In this document: positions 1,903 to 33,953 of the stretch, in pieces | How positions within the stretch are numbered: the first letter of the stretch is position 1 | How the letters are laid out: every line of letters starts with the position of its first letter | NCBI GenBank assembly: GCA_031971595.1 | Contig: DALYGI010000002.1 | Coordinates: 1-33,953, forward strand | Length of the DNA stretch: 33,953 nt | Direction of reading: 5' to 3' | Source: Prochlorotrichaceae cyanobacterium CTOTU29312 | Lineage (GTDB): Bacteria > Cyanobacteriota > Cyanobacteriia > Prochlorotrichales > Prochlorotrichaceae | Program-made: the position numbers and the translations under genes | Notes under the pieces: generated by a model | What the model was told of the DNA's origin: nothing | Database searches by the model: none | What the model saw: only the letters and a program-made list of their open reading frames with translations

Positions 1903-3069
1903 ATGAACGTAAACTTAGCATTGCGGAACCACCTAAACGATCGTTCTGCTGCTTCTATTCCCTTTGCCGAGTTCATGGACTGGGCTCTTTTTCATCCCCA
2001 ATATGGTTACTATAGCCAGGGCAAGGGGTTGGGACAACGGGGAGATTTCTTTACATCGGTACATTTAGGGCCAGATTTTGGCGAATTACTGGCTCAGCAG
2101 TTGACAGACTGTTGGCAGCAATTAGACTGTCCCGATCGGTTTGTTGTGGTAGAAATGGGAGCAGGTGAAGGGTTTTTAGCCCAAGATATATTAGCCTGCT
2201 TAGGCGCACAAAGTCCCGATTGTTTCCGATCGCTTCAGTATTGGATTATGGAGCGTTCCTTGGGTTTAAAGCAACAGCAACAGACTCGTCTAGAGCCATT
2301 TCTCGATCGTTTGCATTGGTTGAATTGGGATGATTTCCAAGGGTTAGAAAATAACGGGATTGTGGGCTGCTTTTTATCCAATGAATTGGTGGATGCCTTT
2401 CCTGTTCATCAGGTGATTGCCCAGGATGGACACCTTCAGGAAGTGTATGTGACCTGGCAGAACAATCAATGGCAAGAGGTCTATGGGCCCCTATCTGACG
2501 ATCGTTTGGCAACCTATTTCCAAGAACAGCAGATTGATTTAACCCAGCCCCCCTATCCAAATCCCTATCGGACAGAAGTAAATTTAGCTGCTCAAGGGTG
2601 GATTCATTCTCTTGCTGAGAAGTTAAAAACAGGCTATGTCATTACCATTGATTATGGCTACGATCGTGATCGTTACTATCACCCCCAGCGCAGCCAAGGC
2701 ACGTTGCAATGTTACTATCACCATCGCCGCCACGATAATCCTTACGTGAATGTGGGGGAACAGGATTTGACCGCCCATGTGAATTTTACAGATTTACAAC
2801 AGTGGGGAAAGCAGGCCGGACTCGAAACCTTAGGCTTCACTCGTCAAGCCCTATTTTTGATGGCATTAGGACTAGGCGATCGTCTTGAAGCACTCTCTTC
2901 CAAACCTCAATCTTTAGCCGCCCTTCTTCAGCGCCGAGATGCCCTCCATCAACTCTTAGATCCCGGCGGACTAGGTAACTTTTGGGTTTTGGTTCAGGGC
3001 AAGGGCCTAACCCCCTCCCAGCAGGATTTAAAGGGATTAAGGACAATCAGTTCCCTCAACTATGATTGA
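1903..3069 (+). CDS. class I SAM-dependent methyltransferase, MidA/NDUFAF7 (DUF185) family
   Basis: SAM-binding motif VVEMGAGEGFLAQDIL and the family-typical SNELVDAFPVH. Size (388 aa) is typical of the family. Confidence 0.75.
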   Translation: MNVNLALRNHLNDRSAASIPFAEFMDWALFHPQYGYYSQGKGLGQRGDFFTSVHLGPDFGELLAQQLTDCWQQLDCPDRFVVVEMGAGEGFLAQDILACLGAQSPDCFRSLQYWIMERSLGLKQQQQTRLEPFLDRLHWLNWDDFQGLENNGIVGCFLSNELVDAFPVHQVIAQDGHLQEVYVTWQNNQWQEVYGPLSDDRLATYFQEQQIDLTQPPYPNPYRTEVNLAAQGWIHSLAEKLKTGYVITIDYGYDRDRYYHPQRSQGTLQCYYHHRRHDNPYVNVGEQDLTAHVNFTDLQQWGKQAGLETLGFTRQALFLMALGLGDRLEALSSKPQSLAALLQRRDALHQLLDPGGLGNFWVLVQGKGLTPSQQDLKGLRTISSLNYD

Positions 3070-3692
3070 CGAAAATCCTTGTATTTAATCTTCGTAATAA
3101 TTCTTTCTCCACTTCTGGTTTTCAACTCTACCTTGGGTCTGGCGACAATTCCCTCTGCCATAAAATCCCCCCATTGTGACATAAATCCCGATCGTGTCTT
3201 CTCGACCATCTCTGGTAGGGTTCCGCTTCCGATAATGGGAACAACATCAATCGACAGTTGATGTGCAATTTGCTCGACATCTTTACGCTGTAACCACCAA
3301 TCTCCGACTTTTACATCAAATAAAACAAAATCCTGATCTTTCCGATAATTCCCGCCGCCTTTTTGTATTCTTGCACCATACCCTTCTCCGTAGAGACAAA
3401 CTCCGTCGCTAAAAATAGACTTAAACGTTTCAAGTTGATGCAAAAACCGCTCATTTAATCTTTGCACTAAAACCGCAGGAATTTGTGCGTCATTCGTTTT
3501 TCCGCCAAACGTAATCTGTTCCTTATCAAACATGACCCTGATATTTGTCCCATCAACCTTTTCAGTAAATATCCATTCATTCTGAGACAAGTATTCAAAT
3601 TCCGACAAAGAAAACTCTCCTTCTAAAAGGGTTTTATATTGTGTTGCAGGATCGCGTTTGAATAGGGTTTGAATTTTATGATATTCTTTCAT
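3060..3692 (-). CDS. minimal ATP-dependent RNA ligase-like nucleotidyltransferase (adenylyltransferase domain only)
   Basis: Covalent nucleotidyltransferase motifs in order: I EKVDGTN (KxDG lysine), III LYGEGYG, IV AEGIVARP, V ITKIKYKDF. AT-rich. GAGG lies 5 nt before the ATG at 3692. The 3' end overlaps the convergent gene by 10 nt. Confidence 0.65.
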   Translation of the reverse strand: MKEYHKIQTLFKRDPATQYKTLLEGEFSLSEFEYLSQNEWIFTEKVDGTNIRVMFDKEQITFGGKTNDAQIPAVLVQRLNERFLHQLETFKSIFSDGVCLYGEGYGARIQKGGGNYRKDQDFVLFDVKVGDWWLQRKDVEQIAHQLSIDVVPIIGSGTLPEMVEKTRSGFMSQWGDFMAEGIVARPKVELKTRSGERIITKIKYKDFRQS

Positions 3693-3834
3693 AGAACCTC
3701 AAGCAAGGGAATAAGGAGTTATACCACCGCCGTCTGCGCTCATGGGTCAGTGCCTTTCGTAGGGAGATAATACGAACTGTCTCTTCATCAGGCTCGGTGT
3801 AGACAGAGGGGTGAGTTACATTGCATAACGTATC
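3676..3834 (-). pseudogene. brnT-like (DUF497 RNase toxin) 3' fragment, copy 1, reading into the start of the RNA ligase gene
   Basis: Minus-strand translation gives ...HPSVYTEPDEETVRIISLRKALTHERRRR.... This matches the BrnT C-terminal signature (V.YTER...IRIISARKAT..ER..Y). A TAG lies immediately upstream and there is no start codon. Confidence 0.55.
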
Positions 3835-3844
3835 CTACAAGATC
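3732..3844. repeat. 113-bp direct repeat, copy 1 (partner 4107-4219, offset 375 bp)
   Basis: Near-identical to 4107-4219 by direct reading, with only a few mismatches near the left (low-coordinate) end. It carries the brnT 3' fragment plus the first 13 nt of brnA. Confidence 0.9.
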
Positions 3845-4118
3845 AACCTAGATGAGCTTTATGTGCCTCAGCATAAATTTTCAACGCCACAGACATCTGT
3901 TGTTTAGCGTGTACTCCTTGTGCCTGAAACCAAGCAAGTGTATCAGGATCGACTAAAACTGATACTTTTACGGGTGACTTAGGCATTCGCAATTGTGCTT
4001 TGGCAAAAAATTCCTCCGATAGGGGGGGAATATCAGAGGTGTCAATGTCTTCATCGCTCATCGCGTCGATTCTAGCCCAATCGGTTCTGGATGTATTGCT
4101 CATAGCGTCTGCGTTCAT
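3843..4118 (-). CDS. brnA: BrnA-family antitoxin (DUF4415)
   Basis: TDWARIDAMSDEDIDTSDIPPLSEEFFAKAQLRMP...VDPDTLAWFQAQG...ALKIYAEAHK matches the DUF4415/BrnA pattern. Confidence 0.8.
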   Translation of the reverse strand: MNADAMSNTSRTDWARIDAMSDEDIDTSDIPPLSEEFFAKAQLRMPKSPVKVSVLVDPDTLAWFQAQGVHAKQQMSVALKIYAEAHKAHLG

Positions 4119-4209
4119 GGGTCACTGCCTTTCGTAGGGAGATAATACGAACTGTCTCTTCATCAGGCTCGGTGTAGACAGAGGGGTGAGTTACATTGCA
4201 TAACGTATC
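4072..4209 (-). pseudogene. brnT-like toxin 3' fragment, copy 2, overlapping the brnA start
   Basis: The minus strand reads DTLCNVTHPSVYTEPDEETVRIISLRKAVTHERRRYEQYIQNRLG*. An in-frame TAG sits at 4210-4212 and there is no start codon. Only about 45 of the roughly 90 aa expected for BrnT remain. Confidence 0.6.
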
Positions 4210-4219
4210 CTACAAGATC
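4107..4219. repeat. 113-bp direct repeat, copy 2
   Basis: See copy 1. Both copies end at a GATC (3841-3844 and 4216-4219). Confidence 0.9.
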
Positions 4220-4448
4220 GGCGATCGGACTGTAGAAACACTCTAGCAACTTTTGCTGAAACGATCGCTCTTAAACCATAATAAGCTTGAGCTTTTGGGT
4301 TTCGTACCTCAACCCAACCTACGGCGAGACGATCGCACTGAGAAGTAGGTTAGGTAAACACAAAATCTAGGTGAGACAGGTAGGAGCGGGATAACGGTGA
4401 AGTTAGATGCCATACCGACCCGCTTCAATCAAAAGAATGATAAACACT

Positions 4449-5762
4449 TCACAACTCTTCGGTCAAAATATCACGGAGTGTTAGCAACCATTGATAACAA
4501 GGCTCATCTATTGGAGCGATGTCTCTACGTAGCTGTGCCAAAGACCCTGCGTAAGCTGTAATCCAAGCTACAGCTAGTTCCTGTTCTGAAGCAGCTTCTT
4601 CTGTGGATGCACGTTCAAACTGTTCTTCAACCCACTCTGCAAAAGTCAAGATTTCTAAAGATATTCCATAAATCTCCTCAATCTCTTCACATCTAGGCTC
4701 TAACTCATCAAGCCTTTCTGGTTCAAGGCTTGTGACGAAGCCAGCTCGCCTAATCGCGGAATGCACCTCCAATTTCTCTGATAATTCCTCAATTTCATCT
4801 CTTAAATATGACTTGCCATATTTGGCATCCCAAGCTTCTACAATTTGTCTGTCCTCTAAAAGCTCAATATCACCAACATTCCCATGCTTTTTATTAGCTG
4901 AACGCATTTGTGAAAGTGGCTTCAAATTACTATTAGGGAAAACTTGGTAATCTTGCATGGCTTGCATTAAGCTGTGCATAGCAATTTCCATTAAGCGAGC
5001 AGCATAATCAGATTGGTTAATGTGGCGGAGAATGAAGTTCAATGCAATTTCTTGATTGATAACTGTTGCTTCAAAAAATGTATTCAGTTCCTCAAGCGTC
5101 TGGGAAGCAAGTATTCTGAAATTTTGTGCTTGATTTAATAACTGTGAAAGAAGGTATTTTAATGCAATATCAGGAGATAATTCGCCTTTCTCTGTAGCTT
5201 CAACAATGCTTACCCACTCAGAACGCGCTCCCCGCAGATTTGCCTTATATACAGTTGAATATGGGTAGTTTTCTGCTAAGCTCCGAGTCATCATGAAACC
5301 GTCAGCATTTAGCCTGAGTAATTCATATTCTCGCAATACAGGTGTAATGTACTTCTTATCAAGAGAGCGCATAGAGATTCCGTCACGCCACGAAAAATCT
5401 CTTGTACTTGCGCTACCTTTATGTAATCTAATATTTTGCTCTGGCTCAATTGACTTAACGCACAACTGTAATATTGTAAGTCCAACTAATGCTCTACCAA
5501 CTTCGCTAGTTACTGACTGAATTAACCTATCTAAAAGTAACCTGTGCGTTTGAGCTAAACTTGAAAAGTCAAGATCTGAGGATCTATCTCTACAAGCTAA
5601 AATCTGTCTTTCTAAATAACCGTTGGAAAGTTCTACTGCTATTCTGGCATACCTCGCTTTTGCTGCTTGGCTCATGCCTCCTTCATGGAAGGTTTGAACC
5701 GTACCGTCAGCAAGAATTAATTCGCTTCTATTGGAATAAACTCTTAAATGTAATTCACTCAT
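4449..5762 (-). CDS. putative restriction endonuclease partner of the adjacent C5-methyltransferase (family not recognised)
   Basis: ATG at 5762 (MSELHLRV...) lies 7 nt after the methyltransferase stop (5770-5772). The track start at 5795 would overlap that gene. Same AT-rich composition. Candidate PD-(D/E)XK-like element GDIELLEDRQIVEAWDAKYGK. The function is inferred from context only. Confidence 0.45.
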   Translation of the reverse strand: MSELHLRVYSNRSELILADGTVQTFHEGGMSQAAKARYARIAVELSNGYLERQILACRDRSSDLDFSSLAQTHRLLLDRLIQSVTSEVGRALVGLTILQLCVKSIEPEQNIRLHKGSASTRDFSWRDGISMRSLDKKYITPVLREYELLRLNADGFMMTRSLAENYPYSTVYKANLRGARSEWVSIVEATEKGELSPDIALKYLLSQLLNQAQNFRILASQTLEELNTFFEATVINQEIALNFILRHINQSDYAARLMEIAMHSLMQAMQDYQVFPNSNLKPLSQMRSANKKHGNVGDIELLEDRQIVEAWDAKYGKSYLRDEIEELSEKLEVHSAIRRAGFVTSLEPERLDELEPRCEEIEEIYGISLEILTFAEWVEEQFERASTEEAASEQELAVAWITAYAGSLAQLRRDIAPIDEPCYQWLLTLRDILTEEL

Positions 5763-5769
5763 GATGCAG

Positions 5770-7779
5770 CTATAAAACTTTGCGAAGTTGAACACTTTTG
5801 GGATTAAGCGTAGGAAAGGCGTAGGGAATCAGATACTCACCTAAAGGAATTTGAGGGTTCGTATTATGGCTTCTAACTTCATAGCCAATAGCTCTCAAAG
5901 ACTCTAGGTAAGAAACAACATCTTCTTCATTAACACCCCAACACTCTGCAAATTCTTTTACTTTAAGTTGAGCAGAAGTAGCCATACATCTAGTTACGCA
6001 TTGAACAACTCGCCAAAATAAATTAACTTTTTCTTTGCCATAAAAATTCATAATTCCGCTGATACGAGCATTATATTGATAGTATCCAGATAACTGCACT
6101 AAATCTGCTTTTCCTGTCACTTCAGTCAATTTTTCTTCAAAAGCTTTCCAGAGTGATGTAAAGACTTGTGTGTCTAACTGTTTGGCGCATAGTTTCACTG
6201 AGTTTGTGCATAAAACCCAGTCATCATAACCACATGACGGATAAACATCAACGGAAAATCGATCTGGCTCCTCCCAATTGCTGTTAGTGCTTGCTTTGAT
6301 TATCCAGGAGGATGAGTCCAATTCACAACTGAGATAAATCTTGACACTATTAGCAACTGGTTCCTCTGTCCACGAAAAGTCATCAATAGATAAAAACCTG
6401 ACAAACTCTCGTTTCTCCTCATAAATAGAGGCATCTAAACCTTTGATTTTTCCTTGTTTAGATAGTTCAATAATTGCGGCTTCAGCTTTTTGAAGGTAGA
6501 TTTTTGTCAATTTTCTCTTACGTTGCCTGAAGCCTAATTGCTTGTCTTGAGGTAAATAAGCAAGATCAAAAGGTAAGCCAACATCCATGACCTGATCCAA
6601 GATGCTAAGGGCTAAAACTCTACCTAGTTGGGGAGGAACCGAGTTGCCAATTTGCTCAATAGCAACTTGTCTATTACCAACTACTTTATAGTCATCAGGA
6701 ATAGTCTGTAATCGTTTTAATTCAGAAATAGAAAATCTACGATTTTCCCAACTAAATGGACCAGTATATTGCCCACCTTGAGCCTTGATTGTTCGCACCG
6801 GCGTATCCGGATCTGCTTTATAAAGGAAGTCAGAAAATTTGGATCTCCAACTAAAAATAGGGTTGGGATAACCCATTTCTTTTGTATAAAAGCTGTAGTT
6901 GAGACCAGGAGGAATATCGTTAAGCAAATGACCAAATCTTCCACCCAATCCCGCTTCTATATCTGAAGTCTCCGAACCGTCAACAGCTTGGGCTGCGGAG
7001 TAGTACGGCTGTTGATCAAGGGAATCACAGCCATGAGTAGGATAGGGAAACAAGTATTTTCCCTGTTTCACTCCAACTATAAATAAGCGTTCCCTATGCT
7101 GGGGAACACCGTAATCAGCAGTATCTAAAATTCGGAAGTAAATACTATAACCAACTTCTTTGAATGCTTCTTGAATTTCTTGCCATGCTTCACCTTTGTT
7201 CGCACCAGTAATTCCATATACATTCTCAAATAAAAAACCTTTAGGTTGAAGTAACTTTAAGATGCGAACATATTCTTGAAATAGTGTCCCTCTCCTGTCA
7301 GTTGTTCCAGCCACCCCTGCTGCCCTACGTCCAGCCGCAGAAAAAGTTTGGCATGGTGGACCGCCGATGACGAAATCCACCTCAAGATCCGGAGCAGGAA
7401 TATAATTTCTAATGTCCATACATACTGGTTTAGAACCATCTAGCCACTTTCCTGGTTGAGAATTTTTTTGCAGTGTTTGAACGTATTTAGCTTCCAGTTC
7501 AACCATTTCAATTATCTCAAAACCAGCATCGTGGAACGCAATATCTAAACCCCCTCCACCAGAAAACAAACTAAGAGTTTTAACTGGAGTGATACCCTGT
7601 TGCCGCAACTTTTGACGAAGAGACTTACCAAAACTGTCAGTCCAAGCAGCCTCTTGTCTTACGTCGAGAATTGATAGGAGTTGTTGAAACCACTGTGGAT
7701 TGACTGGCTCGGAGTCAGATAGTTCAAGAGCAAGGGACAACTGTTGCATTACGTTTATTTGCCTGGGTACCGAAGACAA
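5770..7779 (-). CDS. DNA (cytosine-5)-methyltransferase with a C-terminal extension of about 270 aa and unknown function
   Basis: C5-MTase motifs in order: I FSGGGGLD, IV GGPPCQTFS, VI FLFENVYG, VIII QHRERLFIVG, X GNSVPP. The track start is a TTG; the first ATG (MQQLSLALE...) is at 7749. Confidence 0.9.
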   Translation of the reverse strand: MSSVPRQINVMQQLSLALELSDSEPVNPQWFQQLLSILDVRQEAAWTDSFGKSLRQKLRQQGITPVKTLSLFSGGGGLDIAFHDAGFEIIEMVELEAKYVQTLQKNSQPGKWLDGSKPVCMDIRNYIPAPDLEVDFVIGGPPCQTFSAAGRRAAGVAGTTDRRGTLFQEYVRILKLLQPKGFLFENVYGITGANKGEAWQEIQEAFKEVGYSIYFRILDTADYGVPQHRERLFIVGVKQGKYLFPYPTHGCDSLDQQPYYSAAQAVDGSETSDIEAGLGGRFGHLLNDIPPGLNYSFYTKEMGYPNPIFSWRSKFSDFLYKADPDTPVRTIKAQGGQYTGPFSWENRRFSISELKRLQTIPDDYKVVGNRQVAIEQIGNSVPPQLGRVLALSILDQVMDVGLPFDLAYLPQDKQLGFRQRKRKLTKIYLQKAEAAIIELSKQGKIKGLDASIYEEKREFVRFLSIDDFSWTEEPVANSVKIYLSCELDSSSWIIKASTNSNWEEPDRFSVDVYPSCGYDDWVLCTNSVKLCAKQLDTQVFTSLWKAFEEKLTEVTGKADLVQLSGYYQYNARISGIMNFYGKEKVNLFWRVVQCVTRCMATSAQLKVKEFAECWGVNEEDVVSYLESLRAIGYEVRSHNTNPQIPLGEYLIPYAFPTLNPKSVQLRKVL

Positions 7780-8054
7780 AGGGTACTCTTAGAGCGGAGA
7801 AAGATCAAGATTATCATTCACATCTCAAATAGTACAAGAGAACCAATGCGCTTCGATAGTGAACGGGCATCTAACAAGGAGTTATACGGCGAGTCGCCGC
7901 CTAGCTCCCTGGATTAAAAAGTATCTGAAACGACGATCGTTCCATCCCTGGAGACCACTTTACCCTACCCTAGCAGGAGTGTCAAAAATTAGCTCTGTGG
8001 CCCTGTGGCAAACCCGCTGAAACTTTTGCGTAAACCAAGATGGGCAGGGATAAG

Positions 8055-15958: not shown

Positions 15959-17103
15959 GATAGACAAAAAAAACTCTTCCTCCAGTTTTCGTGATTTCTC
16001 TCCGTTGGGATCCACAGAAATCATCGTTTCTCTAGGGCGGGGGGTGGTGAGGGTTATCAAGCATGGGTTCTGTTCCTTTCAATTCCGATCCTATTCTGTG
16101 GCTACAAAACCGATCGCTAAGGACTGAGGCGGTGGGTTGTAAGGCGGCTATTTTAAGTGATTTTCAGTCTGCTGGTCTGGCCGTTCCTCCGGGGTTTATC
16201 CTCTCCCCTCAGTATTTTCAGGCGTTTCTTCAGGGGGTGACCTGGCCGGTGGCCGGCCCCGCTTATCCGGCCCGGCAGCTTTGGCAAAGTGCGGAGGGGT
16301 TGCAGCAGCAGGTTGATGGGCTGGCGTTTCCCCCCCAGTGGGAGCGATCGTTGCGGGGGGCCTATGAAGATCTGCGCGATCGTTTTCCCAATAGGTTATA
16401 CATTTTGCGCCCATCCCTGGGATCCATCCCCACCACTGGACTGTTGGATCCCATTCTTCACTCGTTGGGAACGGCGGATCCGGGGCGTTTGTGGTTGCGT
16501 TTTTGTGAAGATCTCCGATCGCTCTATCGCCAATGTTTTCAGGCGCGCAGTTTATTGTATTGGCACTATCATCACCACTCCCTGGCCCATCTTCCCTTGG
16601 CGGTGTTGGTGCAGCCCTTATTGCCTGCGGTGGCCACCGGGACGATCGAAATCTGTCCTCAGGAGATGAGGGTTTCTGCCACTTGGGGGATGGGGGCGGG
16701 GTTAATGCAAGGGGAAAGTGTACCCGATCGTTATGTCTGGAGGAGGGCGGAGTGGGCGACGCTCCAACTGGGGCGACAGTCCTGGGTTTATTGGCATCCT
16801 GAAACCCCTGTGGCGGTGAACTGTCCGGTGGAGGTGTTGTCCCCTGGGATGCGATCGGCCCTGACTCTTCAGCGGGTGATTCCAGAGGCCAAACACCAGC
16901 CAGTTTTAACCCCTGACCAACTCGCTATGTTGCGGGAGGAAGCCCTGGCCCTCTTGTCCCTTTTTGCGGATCTGGGCTCACTGGAGTGGATCTTTTCTCC
17001 TTCTCCCTCTAATCCGGCCCATCTGGATCTGGTCTGGACTCAGGGCACGGCGGCGGCTCCGCTGGATCAGTCCTTTAAAACCAGTGGGAACGATCGTTTT
17101 TCT

Positions 17104-17148
17104 ATATCAAACCAACCTATATCCCATCAACCTGTATCCAACCAACCA
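17104..17148 (+). repeat. 3 x 15-nt tandem repeat inside the CDS (ISNQP ISHQP VSNQP)
   Basis: ATATCAAACCAACCT / ATATCCCATCAACCT / GTATCCAACCAACCA, read directly. Confidence 0.85.
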
Positions 17149-17523
17149 GACACCTTTATTCAAGGACAAGGGGCTTCTAAAGGGGTGCAAGTGGGGCGGG
17201 TTTATGGAATGGACGCTAGTTTGCCCTCCCAAGGGTTGAACCTCGAAACCTTAACTCCAGCGGTTTGGAATGGCAATCATGCCTCTAGGGAGTCTGCACC
17301 GATCATCCTGGTGGCGCAGCAATTAACCCCGGAGGTTTTTCCTTGGTTAACACAGGTTCAGGGGTTGGTGTTGGCGGAAGGGGGAATGACCAGTCATGGG
17401 GCTATTTTGGCGCGGGAACTGGAAATTCCGGCGGTGGTGGGGGTCGGTCTGGCAAATTTGCACTATTTACTCTCCCAATCTTGGTTACGGGTGGATGGGA
17501 CTTTGGGGCGGGTTGAGGTTTTG

Positions 17524-17931
<408 letters not shown>

Positions 17932-18760
17932 AGAGTTGCTTGACATCTTAAGTGGGATTCGCATTTTTGCAACCATCAACCAAGTTACCAGCCTAGGGGC
18001 GTTTCCGGCTTACCCGGTGGAGGGGGTGGGGTTATTACGATCGGAGTGGTTTTGTTTGGATTTGTGGGAGGGGCACCATCCCCAGCATTGGATTACGGAG
18101 GGTCGTCAGGGGGAGTTACAGCGGCGGCTACTCGATCGACTCCAAGGATGTATTCAGATGATTCAGCCCCGATCGTTGTTCTATCGCAGTTTAGATTGTC
18201 GGGCGGCGGAGTTGCAGTCTCTGGTGGGACAAGGGGTTTTTCCGTGGACGGTGGGGGGAACGTTTGCCCATTGTCGTGATCCGAGGGTGTTGGATTTGGA
18301 GTTTGCAGTGCTGCATCAGTTGGATCGGTGTGGTAGTCCTCTGAATCTGGTGTTGCCCATGGTGCGGACGGTGGCAGAGTTTATTTTTTGCCGCGATCGA
18401 TACCGACAGTTTTTAGAGGAGCAAGGTTCACCGGAACCGCTTTCCCTCTGGGTGATGGTAGAAGTCCCCAGTTTATTATGGCAACTGCCTGCCCTCGCGG
18501 AGGCGGGGGTGCAGGGGTTGATCATTGGCCCCGGCGATCTGGCCCACTCTTTGCTCGGCCTCGATCGGGGGCGATCGGGGGGCTTGGTGGAGGAGGTCTA
18601 CCATCCCCTGGTTCACCAAGTCATTTTGAATTTAGTGCAGCAAGCAAACCAACTGCAACTCCCCACCCTGTTGTGTTGTCACACGGAAACCCTTGCCCCA
18701 CCCTATTTAGCCACGTACAAACAGGCCGGGTTATGGGGGATTACGGCGGAGGTGCCCCAT

Positions 18761-19120
18761 TTACGGGCTTGGGCTTTGCAGTTGAGTTCCCAACCGGCTG
18801 CCCAGCCAGTTTAAGTAGGCTTCACTGCCTCCCATCACGGGAATCACTAGAAATTCCGGGAGTTCGTAGGAGTGGAGTGCCCTGAGACGCTCTTCAATGG
18901 CGGGTTTCAAGGCTAAACTGGTTTTCAAGATCAGTTGCCACTCCTCATCCTGTTGGACTTCCCCCTGCCACTCATAAACGGACTGGACGGCAAAAGAGTT
19001 AACGCAGGCGGCCAGCCGTTCTTCCACAAAGACTTTGGCGAGGGTTTGCGCCTCATCGCGGGAACCGACGGTGGTGAGGATCAGCACATAGGGGCAGGCG
19101 GAGGTCAACTCTGGGAACAT
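18761..19120 (-). CDS. cutA: divalent-cation tolerance protein CutA
   Basis: VLILTTVGSRDEAQTLAKVFVEERLAACVN...VYEWQGEV...EWQLILKT...HSYELPEFLVIPV matches the CutA1 pattern. Confidence 0.85.
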   Translation of the reverse strand: MFPELTSACPYVLILTTVGSRDEAQTLAKVFVEERLAACVNSFAVQSVYEWQGEVQQDEEWQLILKTSLALKPAIEERLRALHSYELPEFLVIPVMGGSEAYLNWLGSRLGTQLQSPSP

Positions 19121-19991: not shown

Positions 19992-20022
19992 AATTATGAA
20001 TTATAAATTATGAATTATGAAT
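19992..20022. repeat. heptamer tandem array AATTATG (4+ units)
   Basis: AATTATG AATTATA AATTATG AATTATG AATG.... It spans the folP-ppk spacer and encodes the last ppk codons (HNS*). Confidence 0.8.
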
Positions 20023-22170: not shown

Positions 22171-22180
22171 AGTTTAAATA

Positions 22181-22222
22181 GTTTTGAGTTTTGGGTTTTG
22201 AGTTTTGAGTTTTGATTTTTGA
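22181..22222. repeat. heptamer tandem array GTTTTGA (6 units)
   Basis: GTTTTGA GTTTTGG GTTTTGA GTTTTGA GTTTTGA TTTTTGA. Confidence 0.9.
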
Positions 22223-22714: not shown

Positions 22715-22801
22715 AGCAATACCTTTTAAGCAGAAGCTCCGAAATTGATTGCAAGAGCAGTCTACCGTGATTTAGGGGCAATGAGGTTAGGCTTTGGTAA
22801 A

Positions 22802-22829
22802 GTTTTGAGTTTTGAGTTTTGAGTTTTGA
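22802..22829. repeat. heptamer tandem array GTTTTGA (4 units)
   Basis: Direct reading. Confidence 0.9.
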
Positions 22830-22840
22830 GTGTAAACGAA

Positions 22841-23251
22841 TCAGTGTGGAGAGTTTTCTGGGCTCAGACGAGCGATCAGGGCTTCAACCCTTACCCTAAT
22901 CTCATCCCGCACCCGAGGAAAAATTTCTGGCTGTTCTGCGGGATCATCCAATTGCCAATCGTCAAAAAACTCTGTGGTGAGCCATTCTACAGGCAGGCTA
23001 ACGCCGCACCCACAGAGGGAAATCACTACATCAAAATCTTCCGGCTTAAATTCACTCAGGGCATTAGAAGTCTGATTCCCAATATCAATGCCCACCTCCC
23101 GCATAGCAATGATCGCTTCAGGTCTGACGCTACTAGCCTCTAAACCTGAACTGGTCACCAGAATTTTGCCTTCACCCAAGGCTTTAGCAAACCCCTCCGC
23201 CATTTGCGATCGGGCAGAGTTCTTTTTGCAGACAAACATGACTTTTTTCAT
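22841..23251 (-). CDS. arsC: arsenate reductase, LMW-PTP type (Synechocystis-like ArsC)
   Basis: MKKVMFVCKKNSARSQMAEG (CX5R P-loop) and SLCGCG Cys pair. The 39 extra N-terminal residues of track ORF 22841-23368 translate the heptamer array and overlap arsH, so I use the ATG at 23251. Confidence 0.85.
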   Translation of the reverse strand: MKKVMFVCKKNSARSQMAEGFAKALGEGKILVTSSGLEASSVRPEAIIAMREVGIDIGNQTSNALSEFKPEDFDVVISLCGCGVSLPVEWLTTEFFDDWQLDDPAEQPEIFPRVRDEIRVRVEALIARLSPENSPH

Positions 23252-23287
23252 AGGAAATAGGGGGTAGGGAATGGGGAATGGGGAGGA

Positions 23288-23315
23288 GTTTTGAATGATG
23301 AGTTTTGAGTTTTGA
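23288..23315. repeat. heptamer array GTTTTGA (3 units plus one divergent unit) in the arsH-arsC spacer
   Basis: GTTTTGA ATGATGA GTTTTGA GTTTTGA. Confidence 0.8.
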
Positions 23316-23339
23316 GTTAGGGAGGATTGGTTGGGAATG

Positions 23340-23960
23340 TTAACTGGATTCTTGTGCTTTGCGCTCACTGTGGCGATCGGTGAGATAGCCCACCTTATCC
23401 CGTAGCAGTAGGGTGAATTTATAGAGTTCTTCCATCACATCCACAACCCGATCGCGATAGGGGGAATCCCTCATAGTGCCGTCTTCGTTAAATTCCAGAT
23501 AGGCTTTGGCCACGGAGGATTGGTTGGGAATGGTGAACATCCGCATCCAGCGCCCCAGAATTCGCAGCGTGTTCACAGCATTAAATGATTGGGAACCGCC
23601 ACTCACCTGCATGACGGCCAGGGTTTTTCCCTGGGTAGGACGGATAGAGCCGATATTGAGGGGAATCCAATCGATTTGGTTCTTTAAAATGCCGGTGAGG
23701 TTGCCGTGCATTTCCGGCGACGACCAGACTTGCCCCTCTGACCATTGGCTGAGTTCCCGCAGTTCTTGCACTTTGGGATGGCTTTCGTCCACTAATCCCC
23801 GCAGGGGGAGGTCATGGGGATGGAAGAATTTCACCTCTGCCCCCATTTCGGTAATGATGCGGGCCGCTTCTTCCGCTAATAAACGACTGTAGGAACGCTC
23901 CCGCAGGGAACCGTATAAAAATAGAATGCGGGGGGGATGCTCAAAGGTTGGCGTTGCCAT
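23340..23960 (-). CDS. arsH: NADPH-dependent FMN reductase ArsH
   Basis: [23 protein letters not shown] and the rest of the ArsH-type flavodoxin-like fold pattern. Located between acr3 and arsC. Confidence 0.9.
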
Positions 23961-23965
23961 TGTTA

Positions 23966-25123
<1,158 letters not shown>

Positions 25124-25401: not shown

Positions 25402-25600
25402 ATGGCTCAGAAAACCGCATTGCTCATTGGTGTAACCGAATACGGCGAGGGCATCCCCAATTGTCCTGGGATGAAGCCATAGCGTTTTGTCAGCGTCTCT
25501 CAGAGCGATCGGGAAAACCCTAGACCACTGGCATGATAATTATCAAGGCGCACCCACGGATGGATCGTCTCTAGGTAATTTTCCGACAGAAAAGGAGTAG
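25402..25600 (+). pseudogene. shredded remnant of a caspase-domain / FGE-sulfatase-domain gene
   Basis: Three fragments lie in different frames. MAQKTALLIGVTEYGEGIP is like a caspase/peptidase C14 N-terminus. WDEAIAFCQRLSERSGKP* is FGE-like. HWHDNYQGAPTDGSSLG...* is also FGE-like. Confidence 0.5.
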
Positions 25601-25678
25601 GAAGACTTTGATGCGTTAGCTTCTTCCTTGTCTTGACAGAGTGGCTATGATACTTTGAGATAATTAATTATGTTGAAA

Positions 25679-25775
25679 TACTCCCTTCCTGAGTCTAAAA
25701 TTACCTATGAAAAACGGGCGTAAGCCTTGCTGTTACGTGATCGGGCTACGGTATTCTTCTGGAAGGAAGGGAGTA
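25679..25775 (+). repeat. perfect 11-bp inverted repeat with 75-nt spacer, upstream of the orphan cassette
   Basis: TACTCCCTTCC (25679-25689) pairs with GGAAGGGAGTA (25765-25775). It is flanked by the 14-nt direct repeat TGATACTTTGAGAT at 25648-25661 and 25811-25824. Confidence 0.7.
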
Positions 25776-25835
25776 GTTAGACTGCTAAACCGATGTATCC
25801 TGTATTGACTTGATACTTTGAGATTGGAATAACTA

Positions 25836-26273
25836 ATGTGTACTCTGCAAGACGAGCCAATTTTAATTGATAGCCAGAAAGACCCTCCAATTACCTATAA
25901 GGTGCGATCGGTACATCGCAGAAGAGGAAATGCAAACAAATCGATATGGACAATAAAAATCCCTGAAGAAGTTGAGTGTTTTAGACAAACATACACCTCC
26001 CTTTGGCTTGAAGAGACTAAAGGATGGGGACTTAAGCTTTCTGCTACATCTCAGTTGGAAGAAGTAGGGGTTTCAGATCAAGGTCAAATTCTTAAGATTG
26101 CAAAATTCAGAGATGATGAAGCTGATGGCGTTTGGCATGGTTACCCAGCCAATTACTGTTATAAACCTCAGGACAAGCCATCTAAAAAGATTCTTCTAAA
26201 GTGGTTAGAGGCTGGACTCATTGATAAAACTCAGAAAAGTAGAATATCCCAGGGGAAGTTATGCAACCTTTAA
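25836..26273 (+). CDS. orphan 145-aa protein (cassette gene 1)
   Basis: AT-rich ORF whose last 13 nt overlap the start of the next ORF. No family recognised. Conserved-looking C-terminal stretch DGVWHGYPANYCYKPQDKPSKKILLKWLEAGLI. Confidence 0.55.
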   Translation: MCTLQDEPILIDSQKDPPITYKVRSVHRRRGNANKSIWTIKIPEEVECFRQTYTSLWLEETKGWGLKLSATSQLEEVGVSDQGQILKIAKFRDDEADGVWHGYPANYCYKPQDKPSKKILLKWLEAGLIDKTQKSRISQGKLCNL

Positions 26274-27490
26274 AAGTTAGTATTGAAGGTGATTTTTGGG
26301 ATTGTCAAATTTACCGAGGTCGTCTATATGCCTTTTACATGGACGGCTCATTAGCAGTTTATGACTGGAACAAAATAATTACCTCTCTTCACAATCAAGT
26401 TGAAGACTCGTTACCCATTGATTGTGCATTTAGAAGAGGTAATTATCTGTACGGTTCTCAGATTAAGGAGTTATTTAACTATCATAGTTTTAAACAGTAT
26501 CTTATTGAACGTTTCAACCAATACACTGAGCAAACTTTCGTCATAGAAAATTCAAAATTATCGGATTTTGAGCTTATTCGTTTGGATAACCCTTTTGTAG
26601 AACTTCCTAATGATACTGAAATTTTCGATAATAAGTTATATGCAGTAACAGATTCAGGATTTTCAAAAATTAGTGTTCACACTCGAAATCCTTTAGGTAA
26701 ACGTGTAACCAAATTCTCGGATGGTTTATTTATTGCCCTAAAAGCATCCAAGGGAACGCTAGCCTTGTCTGGAGGGGATGAAGGATTATTTGAGTTTCAT
26801 ATTCAATCTTCAGGAAAGTTCAAAGAACTGTTCACTGAGATTGAGAAAGATGCTCGACTTGAAAAAATTGAGAACAATCTATTTAGACTAAGCTCGCAGC
26901 ATTCTTCTTTTGTTAATTGGTCTTTTGCTAGTCTTTATAGCTCTTCCTATGTTTCACCCTCTTTTCTGGCTGCATTTGGGTGGAGAGAAGAAAAGGAAGA
27001 AGACAAGAAAATCTACAAAAGAGAGTTTAAAGGTGTTTTTTCTCAATCTGAAATTTTTACAGATGAGATAAGCTTTTGCTGGGGATTACAAGAGAAGATT
27101 TATAAAGCTGATACTCAGAATCGCAGAATTGATGTCGTTTCATATATTCAAAGTTCTATAAAGTTTGATTTCTTAGACTCTATTCAACTTGAGCAATGGC
27201 AAGGTGATATTATCGGTGGGGGGACAGCTTACTTTGGTGTGATTATTGAATTAGAAAACTCGATCGTTGTTGTAACGAGCAATAATAATATAATCACCAT
27301 TCCCAGAACTGCAAGCAGGTGGAGAGTTTACCCTCGATCTAGAAACTATGAAAATCATTTACATATTATTACAGATCAATACTTAGAAGTATATTCCTTT
27401 AATCACGATTATTTCGTATCTCAGGACAATAAGGTAGCTGGCATAAGGTATGTAGATGATTACAAGCGTTCCTGGACAAAAGTAGCTTAG
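26261..27490 (+). CDS. orphan 409-aa protein (cassette gene 2)
   Basis: A long ORF in roughly 30-38% GC DNA is unlikely to be open by chance. A purine-rich AGGGGAAG precedes the ATG at 26261. No Walker A, nuclease or other motif recognised. Repeated beta-strand-like segments (GRLYAFYMDGSLAVYDW, NKLYAVTDSGFSKISV, GTLALSGGDEGLFEF). Confidence 0.7.
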   Translation: MQPLKVSIEGDFWDCQIYRGRLYAFYMDGSLAVYDWNKIITSLHNQVEDSLPIDCAFRRGNYLYGSQIKELFNYHSFKQYLIERFNQYTEQTFVIENSKLSDFELIRLDNPFVELPNDTEIFDNKLYAVTDSGFSKISVHTRNPLGKRVTKFSDGLFIALKASKGTLALSGGDEGLFEFHIQSSGKFKELFTEIEKDARLEKIENNLFRLSSQHSSFVNWSFASLYSSSYVSPSFLAAFGWREEKEEDKKIYKREFKGVFSQSEIFTDEISFCWGLQEKIYKADTQNRRIDVVSYIQSSIKFDFLDSIQLEQWQGDIIGGGTAYFGVIIELENSIVVVTSNNNIITIPRTASRWRVYPRSRNYENHLHIITDQYLEVYSFNHDYFVSQDNKVAGIRYVDDYKRSWTKVA

Positions 27491-27596
27491 TGTGATCGCT
27501 CAACTGTTTTATCTTTTTTGCTCCGGTTTCAAATCAGAAAAATTGTTGGATAGTCGTAGATACGAACAACGATCGCTTTTGTATGGGGATCGCTTG

Positions 27597-28013
27597 TCAT
27601 TCGGGCTGGGGTGAGCAAATCCGCCCAGGCAGTCTAGGGCTGGAGCGACGGAACTCCGAGAGGTATTCTTCCAGTTCCACCAGACCGGCCAAATGCAGAC
27701 GATAGTAGATCCAGCGGCCTTCCTGACGCGATCGGACTAGGCCTGCCTGTTTTAAGGTTTTGAGATGGAAGGAGAGTTTAGATTGGGTGACGTTTAAACG
27801 ATCGCAGAGGTCACACACACACAGTTCTTCTTCCTTGAGGAGTTCAAGAACCTGCACCCGGATGGGCTCCGAAAGGGCTTTGAACAGGGTCGCAATGGAC
27901 AGAGGGGAAGGGATGCCTGGACTATCCCGAAGCGCTGACAGGGTTGTATTGGTTTCCATGGGAAGATCAGGGTTAGCAGCGATCGATTTTGCCACTCTAG
28001 TACCCCGATGCAC
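27597..28013 (-). CDS. arsR: ArsR/SmtB-family metalloregulator
   Basis: LLKEEELCVCDLCDRLNVTQSKLSFHLKTLKQAGLVRSRQEGRWIYYRL shows the CVC metalloid site and a winged HTH. A likelier start is METNTT at 27959. Confidence 0.85.
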   Translation of the reverse strand: MHRGTRVAKSIAANPDLPMETNTTLSALRDSPGIPSPLSIATLFKALSEPIRVQVLELLKEEELCVCDLCDRLNVTQSKLSFHLKTLKQAGLVRSRQEGRWIYYRLHLAGLVELEEYLSEFRRSSPRLPGRICSPQPE

Positions 28014-33872: not shown

Positions 33873-33953
33873 AAAACTCAAAACTCAAAACTCAAAATTC
33901 AAAACTCAAAATTCAAAACTCAAAATTCAAAACTCAAAATTCAAAACTCAAAA
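33873..33953. repeat. heptamer tandem array AAAACTC/AAAATTC (more than 11 units, truncated by the window end)
   Basis: Direct reading. It is the reverse complement of the GAGTTTT arrays at 22.2-23.3 kb. Confidence 0.95.

Follow-up and report, generated by a model that had tools for sequence, protein, structure and literature searches.

A pair of overlapping genes from Prochlorotrichaceae cyanobacterium CTOTU29312 forms a conserved operon, with the two genes adjacent and co-oriented across distant taxa in at least eight phyla. The pair lies in a stretch of 33,953 nucleotides that was analyzed as a whole and is called the window below (contig DALYGI010000002.1 of assembly GCA_031971595.1, forward strand). 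Gene 1 (25836-26273, + strand) starts with ATG, encodes 145 residues, and ends with a stop codon at 26271-26273, and gene 2 (26261-27490, + strand) also starts with ATG and encodes 409 residues. These positions are those of the open reading frame (ORF) list, and a preliminary description of the window, made from the letters alone, had given both frames and their 13-nt overlap exactly. In our judgment the chances are about even that the two genes constitute an autonomous conflict module of an undescribed family that is spread horizontally, most likely providing anti-phage or anti-mobile-element defense of the abortive-infection (Abi) type. The broader reading of a conflict module, acting either in defense or in addiction, is the best supported, and the pair is a good candidate, as yet unproven, for a new module of one of these two kinds. 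The preliminary description had likewise suggested a toxin/immunity, Abi, or other defense-type module, and this hypothesis is supported, having withstood all the computational checks that had been named there as possible refutations.

Distribution and co-inheritance of the two genes

When sequences are clustered at 90%, more than 258 relatives of gene 2 are found, in cyanobacteria and above all in Bacteroidota, and all of them are annotated as 'hypothetical'. Gene 1 has 31 close relatives, and its family extends to 653 clusters at 50% identity in a HMMER search of 1.84 billion representatives (E ≤ 1e-3), nearly all of which are stand-alone proteins of about 140 residues. With hundreds of relatives for both proteins, the cassette is no 'orphan', as it had been called in the preliminary description.

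A scan seeded with gene 2 and limited to one genome per species gave 38 loci (individual loci are cited here by L numbers), with hosts among the Cyanobacteria, Bacteroidota, Planctomycetota, Omnitrophota, Chlorobiota, and Bacillota, as well as a deltaproteobacterium and Thiotrichales. Gene 1 is located directly upstream in 37 of the 37 genome loci that have upstream sequence. The set seeded with gene 1 consists of 80 metagenomic loci and 2 loci from IMG/VR, and of the 81 loci with room for a downstream gene, 78 have gene 2 immediately after gene 1. One of the three exceptions, L123, was examined and proved to be a remnant of gene 1 that is truncated at its C terminus and lies beside smpB. Homologs of the two genes are thus linked: with either gene as the seed, virtually every locus has the two side by side.

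Pairwise distances within the two protein families correlate (r = 0.91 for 34 pairs in a mirror-tree comparison). Pairwise identity is about 40% across phyla, with gene 2 more conserved than gene 1, and the same arrangement is kept at only 25-33% identity on plasmids of Agrobacterium, Sinorhizobium, Ruminococcus, and Acinetobacter and in a P2-like prophage. Judged from sequence comparison, this pattern shows a pair that is real, selected, and co-inherited. Occasionally one gene has decayed beside an intact partner. Gene 2 is disrupted and gene 1 intact at L042, a Nostoc metagenome-assembled genome (MAG) in which a ~550-nt insertion lies within gene 2 (L042:10330-10885), and at L043 and L046, where gene 2 is frameshifted; at L015, gene 1 is frameshifted and gene 2 is intact. 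Some of these single-gene decays may be MAG errors, but the ~550-nt insertion at L042 is not.

The overlap between gene 1 and gene 2

The 13-nt overlap (ATGCAACCTTTAA, 26261-26273, + strand) is coding in both frames, with gene 2 starting 10 nt before the gene 1 stop codon (TAA) and lying in the -1 frame relative to gene 1. Where the pair is kept as an operon elsewhere, this overlap is usually kept with it: the sequence ATGCAACCT(T/G)TAA is present in 39 of 44 gene-2-seeded rows, comprising 37 that were scored as 13 nt together with L038 and L042, which have the same sequence with an upstream start called. Among the gene-1-seeded loci, 13 nt is the modal class (41 loci), and overlaps of 4 nt or 1 nt are found in minority clades.

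A programmed -1 frameshift that would fuse the two proteins was considered and rejected. The gene 1 frame, read from the sequence, contains no X XXY YYZ slippery heptamer, and the start position of gene 2 is always ATG or GTG across the loci compared. Because the heptamer is absent and the start codon is retained, coupling is favored over frameshifting, and the overlap is likely a site of termination-reinitiation coupling. The dual-coding overlap constrains the termini of both proteins and would provide a clean natural case of translational coupling. A natural in-frame fusion was also found: P0280 (226 residues, metagenomic) consists of a full gene 1 homolog followed by the last ~85 residues of gene 2. 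This fusion is probably a deletion derivative, and it retains the most conserved segment of the gene 2 propeller described below, which is the suspected contact with gene 1.

Predicted structures and family searches

The gene 2 protein is acidic (pI 5.6, 48 kDa) and predicted to be cytosolic. It had been described as all-beta and repeat-like, and its AlphaFold2 model is indeed a beta-propeller (pLDDT 91.0, pTM 0.90), with ~28 strands in about seven four-stranded blades, as counted from the DSSP string, and a helical insertion at about residues 36-103. Foldseek returned 576 PDB matches at E ≤ 1e-3, all of which are propellers (BamB, WD40, and Tako8/designed proteins), with TM-scores of 0.40-0.48, 7-11% identity, and a Foldseek probability of 1.0. 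The model therefore places the protein in the beta-propeller fold class, and the match is to the fold class only: Pfam gave no WD40 match at E ≤ 1. Conservation peaks toward the C terminus at residues 353-394 (RWRVYPRSxNYENHLH ... SFNxDYFxxQxxKxxG in 92 sequences), and many polar residues are invariant in this protein as in gene 1.

The gene 1 protein is basic (pI 8.8, 17 kDa) and soluble, and no transmembrane or hydrophobic segment or signal peptide was found in either protein. Its AlphaFold2 model, built from the family alignment, is a mixed alpha/beta domain (pLDDT 92.6, pTM 0.87). Foldseek detected no similar structure for this model in the PDB (best E 0.8, TM-score ≤ 0.25, probability ≤ 0.21) and no match in BFVD (best E 0.44), so that the predicted domain appears to be without a fold match among solved (PDB) and viral (BFVD) structures, the two sets covered. 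In particular, the PDB comparison showed no likeness to known nuclease or effector folds (PD-(D/E)XK, HNH/His-Me, HEPN, TIR, SIR2, and barnase/RelE-like RNases).

Among 115 gene 1 sequences, the (near-)invariant residues are Y21, H27, R28, K35, W38, E45, F49, G78, A89, K90, F91, W100, H101, G102, Y103, P104, A105, D113, P115, and W123, some of which fall in the conserved motifs LKIAKF (86-91) and WHGYPA (100-105). On the strength of this conservation, His27-Arg28, Glu45, His101, and Asp113 look like a catalytic or metal-binding center. A structural zinc site formed by H27, C48, H101, and C143 was rejected, as the cysteines are lost in divergent members.

Neither protein matched a family in Pfam, NCBIfam, PADLOC, or PHROGs, where only noise was returned (DUF7035 at E 0.16 and FosA at E 0.13). 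PADLOC-DB v2.0, which includes the PD-T4/T7/lambda systems and the PDC candidates, has no family at E ≤ 1 for either protein, and none of the toxin, antitoxin, or Abi families of Pfam and NCBIfam (PIN, RelE/HigB, HicA, Fic, AbiEii, HTH/RHH) was found in either. A Pfam search over 62 diverse gene 1 relatives gave no family and no toxin or antitoxin domain, and profiles of both proteins had no match among PDB sequences. The preliminary statement that no known family is recognizable thus holds in the sequence-family and PDB searches, in which neither protein belongs to a housekeeping or other described family. Literature searches on two-gene defense systems with propellers, on the WHGYP motif, and on modules embedded in restriction-modification (RM) operons gave no description of the pair, and propellers are not mentioned in the DefensePredictor paper. 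A compact mobile two-gene conflict unit is a familiar type of cassette, and its components here seem, by these searches, unrelated to any described family.

Mobility

In the window, the GC content of the gene pair is 0.362 versus 0.498 in the flanks, with values of 0.35-0.37 in 500-nt windows over 26001-27500 and about 0.48-0.53 on both sides. The pair is similarly AT-rich elsewhere, with a GC content of 26-39% in all core-clade hosts, including those with flanks of 55-65% GC. At L036, L043, and L044, for example, the pair has a GC content of 0.37, 0.31, and 0.32 against flanks of 0.65, 0.62, and 0.55, respectively, and the prophage copy L065 has 0.34 against 0.595 for its contig and flanks. 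The Rhizobiaceae plasmid copies alone are ameliorated (0.52-0.57). The earlier description of the cassette as foreign DNA is thus borne out in hosts of up to 65% GC, and composition together with distribution shows a pair that spreads horizontally as a minimal unit, patchily over many phyla.

Several copies are found on recognizable vehicles. In Acinetobacter lwoffii, a divergent pair (135 + 373 residues, 4-nt overlap; L147:232-1757) is among the few cargo genes of pALWED1.4, a 14-kb MOBQ mobilizable plasmid from a permafrost isolate that could serve as a convenient experimental source of the pair. In Aphanizomenon flos-aquae (L004:6767-14722; also L005 and L006), the pair is cargo of a ~6.3-kb element that splits hupL, the gene for the NiFe hydrogenase large subunit. 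Besides the pair, this element, which is excised by XisC, bears genes for an XisAC-type recombinase, a HigB-like toxin, and a PIN pair, and the developmentally excised hupL element is thus loaded with genes of the addiction or defense type. In a P2-like prophage (L065:197-5243), a divergent pair with a 4-nt overlap is inserted between a gpS-like tail-completion gene and gpV/W/J/I-like baseplate genes. This slot is 'orf30', one of three documented moron sites of P2-like phages (PMC6823313). A second IMG/VR contig (L066) has a divergent pair adjoining invertase and UmuDC-like genes.

Divergent pairs in the P2-like moron site, at L066, and on four plasmids could suggest that the pair serves the mobile element itself, as a superinfection-exclusion or anti-defense factor that was secondarily picked up by chromosomes. 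We consider this explanation very improbable. The pair is absent from PHROGs and from 50,697 sequenced phage genomes, in which neither the window protein nor the L065 prophage variant has a tblastn match, and merely 2 of 2.9 million IMG/VR contigs carry it, both as divergent pairs. The great majority of copies are instead chromosomal and without adjacent phage genes. E. coli genomes searched with the L065 prophage variant also gave no match.

Genomic neighborhood

No third gene is conserved beside the pair, and the neighbors vary both among the 147 nearest genes of 36 loci and among 125 metagenomic neighbors. The pair tends to settle in variable regions of genomes, plasmids, and prophages that are rich in conflict genes. 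At L001, a type I RM operon has the pair inserted between its hsdS and hsdR genes, and the surroundings include a resolvase, an integrase, a C5 methylase, and a NACHT gene. At L019, the type I R subunit (REase) follows the pair directly. Immediate neighbors at other loci include a SIR2-pAgo fusion (L029), PDC-M65A/B (L033), MzaE (L039), and HD-CE/HATPase (L012), and AbiEii, GajA, LmuB, HigB, Uma2, HTH regulators, and integrases are among the 147 nearest genes. The Agrobacterium plasmid copy is found amid RES, caspase, HNH, Vsr, and a 5.8-kb helicase gene, and the Sinorhizobium copy adjoins DUF1998 and helicase genes and IS66. The RM operon at L001 contains one more ORF of note, which encodes 356 residues between hsdM and hsdS (L001:4745-5815), matches only the C-terminal part of the PADLOC type I methyltransferase models, and has no Pfam match.

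Other neighbors belong to toxin-antitoxin (TA) systems. In the closest relative (66% identity; L060/L061), hicAB follows the pair, and Unstab_antitox, PIN, and HicB are beside it at L007. The pair may accordingly be a TA-style addiction module with no dedicated anti-phage role, in which one protein would inhibit growth as a toxin and the other would be its protein antidote. Losing the module would kill or arrest the cell, and any plasmid, prophage, or excisable element that carries it would thereby be stabilized. In favor of this reading, the pair consists of just two overlapping genes in a bicistronic arrangement, encodes no recombinase, and is often found alone or beside TA pairs (those above and the HigB and PIN genes at L004). 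It is also carried on plasmids, including one of 14 kb with a MOBQ system, and on the excised hupL element. Strict pairing with coupling would also suit the co-production of an antidote. We nonetheless regard plain addiction as unlikely. Defense is favored over it for two reasons: copies lie inside a type I RM operon, at the moron site of a prophage, and next to genes for pAgo, Mza, and Gabija-like proteins, and either gene is found decayed while the other is intact (gene 2 at L042, L043, and L046; gene 1 at L015), which is unexpected for a classical toxin and its antidote. A 409-residue propeller is atypical for either TA partner, and the pair has no DNA-binding antitoxin domain and belongs to no known toxin family.

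Proposed mechanism and its assessment

In the defense mechanism that we propose, both genes would be transcribed together, and a ribosome ending gene 1 would reinitiate at the gene 2 start 10 nt upstream, which would fix the ratio of the two proteins. The basic gene 1 protein and the acidic gene 2 propeller would then form a cytosolic complex in which the propeller is the platform for binding and sensing, as sensor or scaffold. Gene 1 would be the effector, probably an enzyme acting on nucleic acid or a nucleotide, and would be kept inactive until a signal derived from the invader is sensed. Complex formation, translational coupling, the sensor and effector assignments, and the defense phenotype are all inferred. 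The roles of sensor and effector could be reversed, because gene 2 is the more conserved of the two and is also rich in invariant polar residues. More tentatively, and less likely than not, the pair might be a previously unrecognized, widespread anti-phage system in which the effector is a small enzyme with a fold absent from the PDB and a His/Arg-Glu-His-Asp center, and the sensor is a cytosolic propeller that operates without an NTPase.

Several observations weigh against a role in defense. Genes for defense, TA, or mobile genetic elements are present within +/-2 genes in roughly one third of loci, an estimate made without a background control, so that only part of the loci show the association. 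In many cases the pair stands by itself as a 1.7-kb insertion flanked by housekeeping genes, as at L002 and in three contigs picked regardless of context, where the order is pnp/pair/rpoD (L064), PEPcase/pair/Uma2 (L062), and, in the third, a pair with an integrase two genes away. In the independent metagenomic sample, most of the 125 neighbors are housekeeping genes, with a defense-like minority (SMC/AAA_15/AAA_21 ATPases, N6_Mtase, UvrD, Macro, DUF4917, an integrase, and a transposase). Both proteins are also unusually well conserved for a phage sensor, at about 40% across phyla. Neither contains a recognizable nuclease, NADase, protease, or pore domain, and the catalytic role suggested for gene 1 comes from conservation only.

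An alternative is a mobile accessory function outside genetic conflict, such as a small catalytic subunit that acts with a propeller, as an enzyme or binding complex, on an environmental substrate or stress and that would spread horizontally through its occasional usefulness. High conservation with many invariant polar residues is what a fixed-substrate enzyme would show, housekeeping genes are the only neighbors at many loci, and propellers are common enzyme scaffolds, with lactonase-like proteins and tetrathionate hydrolase among the fold matches. We nevertheless think such a function distinctly unlikely. No metabolic or transport neighbor is conserved across loci among the listed neighbor families, and a link to arsenic resistance was rejected, as these families include no ars genes in the other ~120 loci. 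Both proteins are cytosolic, without a signal peptide or transmembrane segment. The AT-rich composition persists across hosts with a very patchy distribution, and the recurrent locations of the pair include the moron site of a prophage, an RM operon, and islets rich in TA genes.

Should the pair act in defense or addiction, it would add to the prokaryotic conflict repertoire a new protein pair with no detectable link to described families. If the specific effector and sensor proposed above are correct, they would define a new class of effector and a new, minimal way of linking sensor to effector that is common in Bacteroidota and cyanobacteria. The immune systems of these two groups are poorly explored experimentally, and few defense systems have been tested in them. 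The pair is a strong and specific candidate, though one among many uncharacterized pairs with a possible link to defense islands, and at 1.65 kb it is small enough to be directly cloned and tested.

The locus in the window

Pfam confirms the flanking genes that had been named in the preliminary description. To the left of the cassette are acr3 of the SBF family (23966-25123), arsH (FMN_red, 23340-23960), and the arsenate reductase gene arsC (LMWPc, 22841-23368), all on the - strand. The right boundary is formed by arsR (HTH_5/HTH_20, 27597-28013, - strand), with a desaturase and a Ser/Thr kinase gene (Pfam) further to the right. A gene remnant and the cassette together separate arsR from acr3-arsH-arsC, and the ars operon of this genome is thus split by a small islet of what would be foreign conflict genes.

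The hexamer CGATCG occurs twice in the cassette (25905 and 27261) and 14 times in 1-2900, in agreement with the earlier counts. At the mean frequency in the window (3.3 per kb), about 5.5 copies would be expected in 1655 nt. The depletion in the cassette is therefore mild and mostly restates the GC difference, because the remaining low-GC parts of the window are equally poor (0-3 per bin).

The AT-rich region upstream of gene 1 (25581-25835, + strand) presumably contains the promoter and leader. It has a 14-nt direct repeat (TGATACTTTGAGAT) with copies at 25648-25661 and 25811-25824, a 15-nt inverted repeat with arms at 25676-25690 and 25764-25778, and sigma-70-like hexamers at 25655-25682 and 25673-25701 that mark putative promoters. 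The upstream DNA is not conserved among the six cyanobacterial loci compared, and Rfam and tRNA scans of the cassette region gave no match. The possibility that flanking repeats or a conserved operator bound the mobile unit was rejected, as only the local 14-nt direct and 15-nt inverted repeats were found, and no target-site duplication was seen around the cassette.

The left flank had been described as a shredded pseudogene, and a contig from another sample (L059) reveals the gene from which it derives. From 23549 to the end of the blastn match at 25462, L059 and the window share 99.4% identity, and beyond the equivalent of this position L059 continues into an intact ORF of more than 336 residues (L059:1-1008, - strand) that is divergent from acr3. 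The remnant in the window (25402-25580, + strand) keeps the first 20 codons of this ORF (25402-25462), identical to L059, followed by frame-broken fragments. The remnant marks deletion activity adjoining the cassette, and the window lineage has therefore suffered deletions there. The L059 ORF may be caspase-like, based on SGHG and DCCCSG motifs read by eye. An FGE/SUMF1 origin of the fragments at 25463-25580 was a guess that the PDB sequence search did not support.

At least eight contigs with an identical Acr3 are present in several metagenomes, and in all seven of these eight that are long enough, the insertion site of the cassette and the order of the genes match those of the window. The aligned contigs from other samples have ~99-100% nucleotide identity to the window and the same arrangement. 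Since all seven sufficiently long contigs have the cassette, it is fixed at this site in the population of the window, across several metagenomes.

Additional features were observed elsewhere in the window. An extremely G-rich tandem array of about 27 copies of a 15-nt unit (GTGGTTAGTGGGGGA) is present at 17524-17933 (+ strand), where it overlaps long ORFs at 16063-17775 and 17396-18814. It encloses a near-pure poly-G run of ~97 nt (17670-17766), and the GC skew in that 500-nt window is +0.855. A second low-GC stretch at 3000-7800 (GC 0.37-0.42) contains an ORF for a C-5 cytosine DNA methylase of 669 residues (5770-7779, - strand) followed by a 448-residue ORF without a Pfam match (4449-5795, - strand), and is probably a horizontally acquired RM islet. 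Intergenic heptanucleotide tandem arrays are found at 19992-20022, 22180-22222, 22801-22831, and 33873-33953, with the units AATTATG, AGTTTTG, and, with a 14-nt periodicity at the end of the window, AAAACTC/AAAATTC. A 33-nt stretch related to these arrays lies between arsH and arsC.

Comparison with known systems

The closest structural relatives of gene 2, BamB and the WD40 propellers, share only its fold class. The gene 2 protein differs from them in its additional helical insertion and in the lack of a lipoprotein signal and of periplasmic targeting, and the resemblance has no functional implication.

In its organization, the pair resembles two-gene Abi systems and TA modules of types II-IV (AbiE, HicAB, HigBA), which are also compact and bicistronic, with overlapping frames and no recombinase of their own. 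Those modules likewise spread horizontally, are AT-rich relative to their hosts, and are found on plasmids, in prophages, and in TA or defense islets. In contrast, the pair has no sequence or fold kinship to TA or Abi families and no HTH or RHH antitoxin domain. Its sizes of 145 and 409 residues, with a propeller, are atypical, and either of its genes is found decayed alone.

The position of the pair at L001 recalls PrrC/EcoprrI, in which a latent suicide effector is encoded within a type I RM operon. The gap between hsdS and hsdR that contains the pair at L001 is the position of the prr locus, and the type I R subunit directly after the pair at L019 is a further likeness. However, the pair lacks an ABC-ATPase or anticodon-nuclease domain, and its RM linkage, seen in only two of ~120 loci, is not defining.

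STAND/NLR-like sensors such as bNACHT and Avs, with their C-terminal WD40 or TPR repeats, also couple a repeat or propeller that is presumed to sense a ligand to an effector, and a NACHT gene is present in the same island as the pair at L001. The pair differs from them in having no NTPase domain and no Pfam WD40 signature, and its sensor and presumed effector are separate small proteins.

A validated single-protein defense system of E. coli consists of an N-terminal Mrr-family nuclease followed by a 7-bladed beta-propeller (Vassallo et al, 2022; PMC9519451). The pair shares with this protein a small putative effector that comes first, a propeller of about seven blades that comes next, and a mobile defense context. 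Here, in contrast, the two parts are encoded by separate genes that are presumably translationally coupled, neither protein matches PADLOC, PD systems included, and Pfam and Foldseek searches reveal no likeness of gene 1 to PD-(D/E)XK or Mrr proteins. By analogy and without homology, the Mrr-propeller protein is a functional precedent for the layout of an effector joined to a propeller.

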